Assembly: GCA_951406725.2 (NCBI GenBank) | Contig: OX597815.1 | Coordinates: 13,020,001 to 13,084,000, forward strand | From: Octopus vulgaris | Taxonomy: Eukaryota | Direction of reading: 5' to 3' | Length of the DNA: 64,000 nucleotides | In this document: positions 4,171-62,017 of the stretch, in pieces | How the letters are laid out: each line of letters begins with the position of its first letter | Position numbering within the stretch: position 1 is the stretch's first letter | The notes under the pieces: generated by a model | Told to the model about the DNA's origin: nothing | What the model saw: only the letters and a program-made list of their open reading frames with translations | The model's database searches: none | Made by a program: the position numbers and the translations under genes

Positions 4171-4240
<70 letters not shown>

Positions 4241-4241
<1 letters not shown>

Positions 4242-4447
4242 ATTACCTGAAGATTGACTGTAACCATAACTCGAATTATTACGAATTGGACAGCCATGAA
4301 ACGATCGTAGTGTTTTACTCATTATCTTTTATTAAACTTTTAATACTTTTGATATATATTTAAAATAATATAAATTAATTAATTTTATGTATTGGCTTGT
4401 GTTTTTCATTGTTTGATTTGCCTAATAGTGGTTTTATCTCTAATTTA

Positions 4448-4452
<5 letters not shown>
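4241..4452 (+). ncRNA. Hammerhead-ribozyme-bearing PLE terminal-repeat module between (TA)n tracts
   Basis: CTGAAGA (4247-4253), stem II, GAAA (4298-4301), palindromic CGATCG, TA; ATTAAA downstream. Confidence 0.7.
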
Positions 4453-5570: not shown

Positions 5571-6222
<652 letters not shown>

Positions 6223-9133: not shown

Positions 9134-9357
9134 CTTTATTTAAAGCAGCACAAAATTCAACAAAACCTGCACTTGAGTTTCCCGTTGCCGTTCATCGGAC
9201 AGTTTTTGCTAGAAAAACTGTCCGATGAACGGCAACGGGAAACTCAGAGTAACAGGTTTTGTTGAATTTTCTGCTACTTTAAATAAAGCATATTACTCTA
9301 CCACTGGTATTTGAGTACTCGTTTTTCCACCTTGTTTCACATTTATGTGTTTACTCC

Positions 9358-43749: not shown

Positions 43750-45329
43750 TAACACATAAAAGTGGAGCGATGTAGGGTAAAATAAGTAAGTGTGTCCAAT
43801 GAAGAATGAATCAGTATCATCAGAATGGAAACGGGGGAAATAAATTTTGCCGGCACTCGGAATATGGACCTGAATACGAGGAGGATAATACATCAAATAC
43901 TAGAGTAGCAAAAATAATGCTGTCGGTTATTTCTGGCGAAATCATTGATTGTTACGGCACAGAGAAACGGATAATCGGAGCAGGGAAACACGAGGTTGAT
44001 GACAATGCAAATTTTGTAGATGCGTGGCTTCCCTTTACTTTTGTATCGCACTTCAAGTGGATGTATCAATAGTGTTAGATAAAGGCCGAAAACCGTCAAA
44101 ATGTTGTTGGAAATTACGTTTACATATTTGTTGTGCAAGATTTTTAAAGTGAAATCGTTTGTTGAAACACATATTGTTGTATTTCGGAATGGTCATTTTG
44201 CCAGTTTAGCCAGTAAATAATACTGAAGCAAAGTAACACCAAATATATAGTGCGTGTGTTTTTATTGGCTCAACTGGCAAAATGACCATTCCGAAATACA
44301 ACTATAGTTGTTGAAAATCTTTACGAGCCTGAATGCCACAATACTAGACTAGCCCAATTTAATGTGTTTTGTAAAAGACTATGTTATTTCGCATATCCAT
44401 AGTGAGAGCAATTTCCACACCTTGACAGTGTGAAGGAAGTAGAGAAGAAATGATAAAGATGCAAGTGGAAACCAACCGATCCAGTGGAAACCAGCCGAAG
44501 GGTAAGTTCCAACTTGCAGAGCGCCATCAGTCACAGCTTCGGTAAATTGAATGCAATCATATCCTGTGCAGCTCTAGATATAAGAAAGTGGAAATTTCAT
44601 CCAGTAACATTTAGAATATGTGACACTGGAGCATACTCTTGTGCCGAGGAAGAGAATGTTACTGAGGAAAGTATCCAACCTTTCAGTGGAAACAAAAATT
44701 AGAACGAGCAATACGCCCAGAAAAAGGAATAGAAGTCAACAGAAACCGAAAACAACAAAATCGGTTGAAGAGGGGCAATCTATTTTAATTAACAATGGTG
44801 ATCTTCATCAGAGTATTGACAAATCCGTCGTAGAATAACGAAGATTTCCCGGTGATGTAAAAATGATAAAGATACTGCTGGCGTTAAGAAAAGATGAAAC
44901 ACTCTAAGGACAGGTTGTTGACAAAAACGATAGAAAGACGAACTTAAGCAATGTCATGCTAAACATGTCGATTATTATAATTGAAATGAATTTGATAAAA
45001 TTAAAACATTTATAATATAGACAGAAAGAGAAACTGATAGGAACTTGTGTAGGTGGTGCAACACAGAAAACAGCAATATTTCAATTATATTTTCCGTGTA
45101 TATTTGAGAAATTGCTGAGATGACGTTCTAATAATTTATAATGTAAGATGAAGATACCAATATAGTATTAGAAACATTTACTCAGACACATGTAAATATT
45201 CATGACGGATTTTACATTACTACTACTACCAGTATGATGGAGAACAAATCTGCATATGAAGAACGCTAATATACGTTTTGATACAGCTATAGGGAAAATT
45301 GCAACAACGGACACGGAAAATATATATTA

Positions 45330-56902: not shown

Positions 56903-57097
56903 TAGGTCGCGTAGATATCATAGGCTTCGAAATACAACTGATACCTCGCTATCCGGTCTCCTTTGTTATAGATTCAGTTTAAAATTTCGTGACAGATACA
57001 ACAAATATATTTTTGAATATTTATTTATTTCTACTGTTCTATGTTTTAGACTGAGGAATTACGTACAATATTTAGATTGGACGTTTCGGCTGATAAG

Positions 57098-57190
57098 TCA
57101 GTTAGTTAGTTAGTTAGTTTATTTTTGGCTCAAAAAGCAAAAAGCAAGGCCATGTAGGGGACATGGAGTTATGTACAGGGTGGTGTTCAT
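57098..57190 (-). mobile_element. CR1-like LINE extreme 3' tail
   Basis: Matches 26692-26774 including the (GTTA)n tail. Confidence 0.85.
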
Positions 57191-57202
57191 AAATAAAGGT
57201 TT

Positions 57203-57310
57203 CGGTTCGAAATTCCACTAGGATATCTGATGAAGACTGGCGAGTATATCAGCCGAAACGGTGTGATAATAGCAAACGAGGTGAGGACACCTATCCGTCA
57301 ATGTAAATAT
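57203..57310 (+). mobile_element. HHR-bearing tail of the tRNA-(AAT)n-HHR element
   Basis: CTGATGA (57227-57233)...CAGCC-GAAA-CG; homologous to 60140-60310 and 60568-60697. Confidence 0.75.
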
Positions 57311-58540: not shown

Positions 58541-60139
58541 AATAAAATCTAATAATACCAACAAATATCTCATTGTTATAGAGGTACATTATCGTCTGTT
58601 AGCAATGATTTACCGATCAGGATCTAATAACGTACCTGGCGGTCGGTCCCTGACAGCACTAACTGACCTATAGCTCTAAAATCCTCATTAATGTTTGTTG
58701 CCATTCTCCGACTTGTCAATCTGTAATTTTCATCCCCATAAATTGTCCCTTAGTAATTCTCTGATGCTTTGTAGGAGCCATTTTTAAAACATTTCTTTTC
58801 TGTTATCTGACATTGATGGCATTATACCCGTTATATTATGCATTTGACATTCTTCTACTTCAAGCTTTTACATTATGGTCTAAAACCTGGTCACAGCAAA
58901 ATAAAGTGGCTATTTGTACTTTGCAGATTTTCATTGCATTCTACTTTGCTTCATGCATTTGGTAGATTCTTGTGACTTGCACTACAAGGGAAAATTATTT
59001 CATTTATATTTTGAGTTGTCGAAGGAACTCAATATGGTGATATATCTTGAAGTAAATCTGTTACTTTCACTTACTCCGTGCATTAGTGAAGGGATTTCTC
59101 ATATGTTATATAGCTTTAGTCTGACATTCAGTTTCCCATTATGAGATTAGGTGCTGTATTTTTTTAAATATGTTCTTTTCTATTCTTTGTCTTCTTTCAC
59201 AAATCTCCGTTTCCTTAATGTCGTTTTGTATTATGCGCCATCTGAAGATACAAAGGAATCTATATTTATTTCTTCAATTTTAACGGTTTGATGTTTCCTA
59301 TTTATTTTAAGCTATCATATCTCAAATGCAATAGCAAATATGTAATAATGATCTTCGAGTTATTGACAGCTGCAGCAACACTAATTTCTTCAGAAATATA
59401 TGAGTACCTATCTTGCATTGCTCCTACAGTCGGTATCAAGCTGTACCAAAATCTAATTAAGACTAAGGCAGCTAGAAAGCAAGCTGTCTTAAATTCTGTA
59501 TGAAACTATAACATTTCTTCTTAATCAGTTTCTTATACTTCCATATTGTAGTTTACATAGTTTCTTTATTCCTAACCATTTGTAAGAACGCTTTTCGTCT
59601 AATTCTCTTATTATTTCTTATCTAAAATGAGGTTAGTATTTGTAATTAATTTTACACTCTTTAACTTTGAAATACTTTCATACCACATTTCACGTGAATT
59701 TCTTTAGAAGTTCGTATTTAAGACGTTCTCTTAACTTGTAAGAAATTATCGTGCGTTGGATAAATGCTTTAGCGATCATGGAGTGGGAAAATTTTCTCCA
59801 ATCACATTGAGCTGATCGAAATCTTTTCATTGAAATTTTGTATACGCAAATTTTATGAACGTTGTCGAATAGACAGCATGGCTTCACACACATCATGTCC
59901 CTAATACTGTCGCTCTCTACGGTGCCAAACTCGTCTCTAACAATGTCACGCTGACTTTCTCTGAGAATGAACGTTTATGCATTATTGTACAACGACTACT
60001 CAGTCATACTATAATTCAGTGCCTACATAGATACTAGATCGAAGAAGTGGAAAATATATACTATCACAATGAACTGATGATCCAAAAGAGTCTGACGTTC
60101 CAAAATTGTTTTATAATGTCCTGTTATTCCTTGAGCTAT

Positions 60140-60310
60140 TAAAAATACCTTAGAAATGAGAAACCAGCTTCAAAATTTCCACAAGACGACTGATGAAGGC
60201 TGAGGGTATATCAGCGAAAAAGTTGTATGAACAACAAACAAGATGAGGACAAATATCCGTCAAATATACATAACGTACATAATTCCTGATCTCTTAAATA
60301 TAGAACTGTA
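60140..60310 (+). mobile_element. HHR-bearing tail of the tRNA-(AAT)n-HHR element
   Basis: AAAAATACCTTAG...CTGATGA-AGGCTG...CAGC-GAAA...GATGAGGACAAATATCCGTC. Confidence 0.8.
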
Positions 60311-60370
60311 ATATATATATTTAGAGCGGTCAGCTAAAAGTTTTTGAGCATTTTGATGTCGACATAAGTT

Positions 60371-60465
60371 CCTTGATTTTCCTGATGAGAAATCTGCATA
60401 ATGTACTCCTTATTCCTTCGGAATTAGGAATATGCAGCCTTCGAAACATATGTCGAGAATAAAGG
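60371..60465 (+). ncRNA. Type I hammerhead ribozyme, apparently intact
   Basis: Stem I CCTTGATTTTC/GAGAATAAAGG, CTGATGA 60382-60388, stem II GAA..CTGCATA/TATGCAG..TTC, GAAA 60443-60446, palindromic CATATG, GTC cleavage triplet. Confidence 0.8.
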
Positions 60466-60512
60466 ATATTTGTTAACTAGTCGTTCAACTCCATTCTTTC
60501 ATATACTTATAA

Positions 60513-60567
<55 letters not shown>

Positions 60568-60569
<2 letters not shown>

Positions 60570-60742
60570 CGGATATTTGTCCTCATCTTGTTTGTTGTTC
60601 ACACAACGCTTCCGCTGATATACACTCCAGCCTCCATCAGTCATCTTGGGGAAAGTTTGAACCTGGTTTCTCATTCCTAAGGTATTTTTCGATGTTCCTG
60701 TTGTTGTTGTTATTATTATTGTTATTGTTGTTGTTGTTGTTG

Positions 60743-60831
<89 letters not shown>

Positions 60832-60908
60832 GTTGTTATTGTTATTATTATCATTAATCTCGTCACTGCTTGGAATCGAACTTGGGATCTTAGGGTTAGT
60901 AGCCCGCG
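60568..60908 (-). mobile_element. Composite element: tRNA-like head, (AAT)n spacer, HHR-bearing tail
   Basis: Minus strand: truncated head with B-box AGTTCGATTCC (60862-60908), triplet spacer, tail (60568-60697), ending at (TA)n. Confidence 0.75.
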
Positions 60909-60977
60909 TCATATAGCGTAGTCGTTAAGAACTCGGGCTAGTAACACCAGGATTCCGAGTTCGATTTCCGACAGTGA

Positions 60978-60981
<4 letters not shown>
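60909..60981 (+). mobile_element. tRNA-like Pol III head, head-to-head with the minus copy
   Basis: A-box-like TAGCGTAGTCGTT, B-box-like GAGTTCGATTTC, then (AAT)n. Confidence 0.8.

Positions 60982-62017
<1,036 letters not shown>

Follow-up and report, generated by a model that had tools for sequence, protein, structure and literature searches.

Hammerhead ribozymes in the pseudo-LTRs (pLTRs) of Penelope-like elements (PLEs) are already established, and the long-armed lineage described here is a variant of this known class. The nearest described system is the Hydra clade (Craig, Yushenova, Rodriguez, and Arkhipova 2021, PMC8557442), which includes Hydra-1_Obim of Octopus bimaculoides. As set out there, Hydra-clade elements have in common with the present one a C-terminal GIY-YIG domain without CCHH; the motifs DKT, RW, CxxC, and CxH; insertion into (TA)n; a 3' type I hammerhead with a palindromic stem III; and an inverted, 5'-truncated arm with a tail at one end. 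The same paper associates a CxCX5C linker finger with (TA)n targeting, as a hypothesis. The octopus element differs in that the finger is missing; its size is ~3.6 kb compared with <3 kb; its tail is ~150 nt compared with 30-40; its stem II domain is 54 nt, whereas the Hydra entries of File S2 have short-looped stems of 3-7 bp; and its hammerhead and protein sequences are unlike those of Hydra-1_Obim when judged by eye.

The metazoan PLE hammerheads of Cervera and de la Pena (2014, PMC4209133) also lie in the pLTR, have a G10.1-C11.1 pair, a small palindromic helix III, and a helix II larger than usual, occur mostly as solo truncated copies, and are expected to act under a dimer model with low activity in vitro. 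The present motif departs from them in a helix II far above 7-8 bp, a helix I of 11 bp where theirs has 4-5, the lack of an additional base between positions 9 and 10.1, and a helix III that is not minimal. Long-armed PLE hammerheads have precedent in spike-moss PLE-X1, where two long-loop-2 rows (File S2 of PMC8557442) likewise have about 50 nt in their stem II domain; these are deviant, belong to unrelated endonuclease-less plant elements, and are given as a single consensus without covariation shown. A further parallel is the PAc Poseidon element of Anolis carolinensis (Frangieh et al. 2024, PMC11167929), which belongs to a different clade. PAc likewise has a hammerhead at the pLTR-ORF junction, two internal reverse transcription start sites that define the tail, and AT-rich targets. 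A literature search covering mostly papers open without subscription yielded nothing on the octopus family or on long-stem-II PLE hammerheads, and a search on the Hydra clade and zinc fingers found no paper. The family is undescribed in the titles and abstracts of octopus papers and in the available part of bioRxiv 10.64898/2026.07.22.740005, whose supplements could list related motifs.

The motif lies within a 64,000-nucleotide stretch of the Octopus vulgaris genome, denoted the window. Base-by-base reading identifies it as a type I hammerhead on the forward strand, with every listed part verified at its position (Table 1). Stem I forms 10 of 11 bp, with a single G.A mismatch. The basal pair of stem II is G10.1 (60389) with C11.1 (60442), the helix above it pairs CTGCATA (60394-60400) with TATGCAG (60431-60437), and the domain also contains an asymmetric internal loop and an apical hairpin (60407-60429). 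The self-complementary octamer ACATATGT (60446-60453) forms stem III, and cleavage is predicted, from sequence, directly 3' of C17 (60454). An earlier examination of the letters alone (the sequence-only reading) had proposed this stem I, CUGAUGA, G10.1-C11.1, long stem II, GAAA, and ACATATGT, together with an AATAAA in stem I and (TA)n downstream, and all were located as claimed; its cut after C60454 is supported as a prediction from the hammerhead layout. It had also called the motif the best preserved, which holds in that this is the sole full type I match when both strands of the 64 kb are scanned under strict criteria, but not at the base of stem II, which in this subfamily has just 3 bp followed by a 2x2 mismatch, compared with 5-6 bp in most sister subfamilies.

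Table 1. Features of the hammerhead, its insertion, and the flanking repeats (window positions).
Feature	Position	Strand	Basis or remark
5'-truncated tail of 3' pLTR	60320..60518	+	92-99% matches to copies in 29/29 other fetched loci
Stem I, 5' strand	60371..60381	+	pairs with 60455..60465
Catalytic core C3-A9 (CUGAUGA; CTGATGA in DNA)	60382..60388	+	direct reading
Extended stem II domain, 54 nt	60389..60442	+	fold, compensatory changes, length constancy
G12-A15.1, stem III, and GUC triplet	60443..60454	+	GAAA at 60443-60446
Stem I, 3' strand	60455..60465	+	holds AATAAA, 60458-60463
(TA)n target microsatellite	60518..60567	.	direct reading
Decayed family X copy (short-stem-II minimal hammerhead), core broken, outside element	60141..60308	+	sequence match
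Second decayed family X copy, facing same TA run, outside element	60568..60729	-	sequence match
Other family X piece	57032-57100	-	sequence match
Other family X piece	57197-57309	+	sequence match

Every one of 200 shuffles folds less stably than the region 60360-60480 (z -2.69), and z reaches -3.5 for the stem II domain on its own. The three-way junction carries CUGANGA, GAAA, and NUH with an open stem I. In most copies a mismatch or internal loop interrupts stem I 6-7 bp from the core, and stem II has no terminal loop 2 at the canonical height. The sequence-only reading had recommended a covariance search against the Rfam hammerhead model; no hammerhead family matched at E<=1 over the whole window or at E<=10 over 60000-60700, most likely because a 54 nt stem II is beyond the models. 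The apical hairpin of stem II resembles stem I, a possible alternative pairing. As a possible switch, an upstream palindrome and an 8 nt anti-cleavage-site match (60356-60366) were weighed, and the idea was discarded because sister subfamilies do not retain them.

Three hammerhead families are verified in the window, and further decayed ones could be missed. The earlier count of at least four was too high, as the four neighbouring tails constitute one family; the accompanying claim that the motif is unrelated to those tails was borne out by local scores of 18-24, compared with 89-207 among the tails themselves. The window's TA run also took in two copies of another repeat, family X, one per side. 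Across the genome, 4,358 copies of family X have an intact core, with 0 in a control, and the cores of its window copies are broken or truncated. The third verified family lies elsewhere, at 4240-4450 (+), an unrelated long-stem-II hammerhead-like motif with its core at 4247, a U-U at 10.1/11.1, a palindromic ACGATCGT stem III, and a weak stem I. It lies in a high-copy repeat of ~220 nt flanked by (TA)n, with 1,602 first-look candidates and 96-100% identity among the 49 matches listed; a search for its parent element found none. Yet another long-stem-II hammerhead, a third kind with no relation to the main lineage, occurs at another fetched locus (L101:1490-1590, +), with a 57 nt domain and a ACAAATTGT stem III. 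The stretch 61054-61475 (+), between (TAA)n runs, is the 3' end of another retroelement with a PD-(D/E)xK-type endonuclease tail, presumably resembling R4/Dong-type elements. Long, near-perfect inverted repeats (MITE-like hairpins) are found at 60860-60985, 9163-9260, 44167-44311, and 5703-5780; microRNA matches at these hairpins were dismissed as spurious.

By its sequence, the hammerhead at 60371..60465 sits in the 3' pLTR of a Hydra-related Penelope-like element of ~3.6 kb. The window copy is a dead insertion of 200 nt, an inert fragment. Its tail of ~200 nt stops about 64 nt beyond the cut site, a 3' end of the short class, and has a short TA remnant at the 5' junction (60311-60320). Matches in all 29 other fetched loci begin at or near 60320, and other copies extend upstream by variable lengths, up to 3.5 kb, into a coding frame for a reverse transcriptase (RT) and GIY-YIG domain that is separated from the pLTR hammerhead region by a 3' UTR of ~560 nt. 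The longest element bodies are about 3.6 kb and contain a single ORF with RT and C-terminal GIY-YIG. One genomic place (loci L038 and L006) shows two pLTRs in direct orientation and the junction of pLTR and ORF, with the ATG start codon 256 nt 3' of the cut site. A possible GT-AG intron of ~70 nt (L006:1329-1396, -) lies between the pLTR and the start codon and overlaps the long 3' end; no spliced joint over it was present in the contigs of five presumed-RNA runs, which counts neither way. Those contigs span the pLTR and parts of the ORF and cannot show ends, strand, or level. An unbroken full-length frame is present in 0 of 20 long loci, with each copy read having a frame break or truncation. 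Pseudo-LTRs, an inverted truncated 5' arm, and a tail at one end are all present, as for EN+ Penelope-like elements, and the homologues named are from Octopus bimaculoides and Argonauta hians. Assignment to a non-LTR retrozyme, a short non-coding tandem hammerhead unit, was rejected because the copies are dispersed truncations of a coding element.

The element protein, in which a Pfam search named no domain, has the motifs RW, DKT, and YRDD and, at its C-terminus, a GIY-YIG-type domain without CCHH and with CxxC and CxH. DKT replaces DKG, as in the Hydra clade, and RWL stands at the RWK-motif position, where relatives have RWR, RWK, or RWM. Two further Hydra-clade traits, (TA)n insertion and a 3' hammerhead, are both present. 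The CxCX5C linker finger is absent, with 0 Cys in the 207 residues before the GIY motif, and neither the three subfamilies read nor the other reading frames contain one. At the linker, these three subfamilies have a conserved, cysteine-free motif of ~25 residues (L048:1614-2200, -; L060:2245-2742, -; L076:384-869, +). Among metagenomic relatives with a readable linker, 65 of 66 have the finger. A quick RT tree of 98 rows, midpoint-rooted and containing no named reference or outgroup sequences, groups the lineage on a long branch with the finger-bearing relatives P0001 and P0002 (SH-aLRT 100), a position that suggests derived finger loss. Because the finger is absent, the parent is filed as a derived Hydra-related lineage and not as a plain member of the clade.

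The lineage is young and abundant in the 2.8 Gb genome (227 contigs). Exact copies of the 95 nt motif number 116, a 171 nt query gave 1,626 first-look candidates with 99-100% identity among the 40 scored, and a lineage pattern with a 40-55 nt gap found 6,802 intact-core sites compared with 0 in a reversed control. From 143 pattern matches in fetched loci, 73 were distinct and formed 12 clusters at 90%; 18 rows from 10 of these were aligned, excluding L101 (other family), L106 (local duplication), and near-identical copies. The 17 other rows are 65-91% identical to the window copy, and in all 18 the stem II domain measures 53-57 nt. Unaided, RNAalifold recovers lower stem II with 11 pairs, 6 of them compensatory (two-sided). 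The full model pairs 84.6% of cells over the 18 copies, compared with 37-49% in slid controls, and its covariation score was matched by 0 of 500 shuffles, a count that overstates independence since the 18 rows represent about 10 related subfamilies. Two-sided change occurs at 12 of 31 pairs, a number equalled in 91 of 500 shuffles and hence not significant alone. Stem I covaries at one pair (U-A to C-G), and the apical hairpin has zero two-sided changes. Since the search pattern dictated the core letters, these are not independent evidence of conservation. The structural conservation and covariation among copies, named as checks by the sequence-only reading, are borne out, with stems kept through compensatory changes. 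The family is real and well conserved and is most likely a functional ribozyme.

The outgroup for arm length was 78 Hydra-type metagenomic loci from an alignment-based scan, with stem II allowed up to about 90 nt; a metagenome scan using P0001 had given no match. Of these, 58 loci yielded 69 hammerhead sites; 68 of the sites have a stem II domain of 10-25 nt (median 17), and the remaining one is a doubtful match with a 64 nt domain. The arm of the window lineage is about threefold longer than those of its relatives. Selection acts to keep it paired, and most likely it extends helix II in a way that is either tolerated or stabilising. A possible but less favoured alternative is that the arm has a function of its own, for instance as a putative binding platform for the RT-endonuclease or a tertiary docking partner for stem I, and times the ribozyme cut. 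The length of the domain is held in copies down to 65% identity, and CA/TG pairs and a TATT far from the core are invariant in the aligned copies. The endonuclease regions of sister subfamilies are just 56-64% identical to the protein of the window family. Protein-assisted cleavage is, moreover, known for one PLE hammerhead (PMC11167929). However, the subfamilies share one ancestor, so the arm length is possibly just inherited; an unrelated family in the window carries a long arm of other sequence; and upper stem II varies between copies in pairing and loop size.

How the hammerhead would cleave is suggested by stem III. All 18 copies keep the octamer self-complementary, including a double change from ATAT to ACGT in the would-be loop, which is best explained by the pairing of two copies. 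The self-complementarity already pointed out from the sequence is in this way confirmed as a pattern of the dimer type. The 8-bp intermolecular stem III duplex is predicted at -7.0 kcal/mol, and it takes two molecules to make stem III stable. The active monomer fold occupies 0.3-0.9% of the ensemble, a stem III of this length being too short within a single molecule. Two copies of 60369-60468, folded without constraint, form a double hammerhead at -58.0 kcal/mol compared with 2 x -25.3 kcal/mol; with longer flanks (60350-60475 and 60320-60520), other dimers fold better than this active structure. Dimeric PLE hammerheads have reportedly been studied by Luense et al. in 2017. The favoured and probable reading is a type I hammerhead that likely cleaves only weakly as a monomer and mainly as a dimer paired through stem III or with the assistance of the element's protein, carried in the pLTR of a recently amplified Hydra-related Penelope-like element.

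Family insertions have two classes of 3' end. Measured from the predicted cut site, 33 of 67 genomic ends are short (about +57 to +79 by local alignment) and 32 are long (+208 to +217); one lies at +14, one reads through, and 0 of 67 fall at the cut site itself. As classes, the two kinds of end are placed at about +57-65 and +205-210. TA repeats adjoin 60 of the 67. Head-to-head insertions make up 23 of 48 loci examined, and 22 of these 23 pair one short with one long end. As 3' ends are never at the cut, the template for insertion would be uncut or re-joined there. By analogy with the anole PLE, where initiation is internal and on unprocessed RNA (PMC11167929), reverse transcription likely starts at two internal sites. 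PAc is cut inside the ORF and starts about 111-118 nt into it, whereas here the cut precedes the ATG and both ends are in the 5' UTR, about 150 nt apart. Anole hammerhead cleavage required protein, according to the same paper. Anole ribozyme mutants still inserted in vitro, so cleavage may be dispensable for transposition.

A plausible sequence of events begins with tandem pLTR-ORF-pLTR transcripts, which would bring two hammerheads together. Cleavage after C60454 would release a unit RNA whose 5' end is 256 nt ahead of the ATG. After a nick in (TA)n by the RT-endonuclease, cDNA would begin at either of two internal, TA-rich positions beyond the ribozyme, with a template RNA that is uncut at the cleavage site or has been re-joined.

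The absence of insertions ending at the cut site, along with an active monomer fold below 1%, could also be accommodated if the motif were a catalytically silent relic, kept for 3' end formation or as a promoter. A hexamer overlapping stem I occurs in every aligned copy (AATAAA in 7/18, AGTAAA in 8/18, and TATAAA in 3/18), and all three variants are poly(A)-signal-like. Such hexamers are, however, frequent in sequence of 65% AT, and in 18 of 18 copies the N17 base is limited to C, A, or U, stem III is palindromic, and stem I is paired beside the core, all of which are constraints expected of catalysis rather than of a poly(A) signal. A silent relic is for these reasons unlikely. About equally improbable is a part swap, in which the finger was lost, the cysteine-free motif took its place, and the long arm became the RNA handle by which the protein couples cleavage to the choice of start site, one per strand; nothing in the evidence links finger loss causally to the long arm. 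That the unit of 200 nt is a non-autonomous repeat in its own right (SINE or retrozyme) and not a broken tail is very improbable and largely refuted, since its many short copies and the common boundary in comparisons with the window are offset by that boundary being the window copy's own truncation point, past which other copies run on, and by the absence of tandem arrays of the short unit in 50 loci.

Three points give the family wider value. With ~6,800 intact-core motifs in one lineage and the window copy missed by Rfam, length-capped ribozyme censuses likely undercount. The lineage's roughly ten subfamilies provide natural covariation for asking whether a long helix II matters. Strong (TA)n targeting is retained without the finger that was hypothesised to mediate it, and this fingerless targeting, together with the rule of one short and one long end, bears on how PLE reverse transcription is initiated and how targets are chosen. 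Were the part swap true, the finger would be dispensable for TA targeting, and the lineage would be a natural system for learning what PLE hammerheads do.
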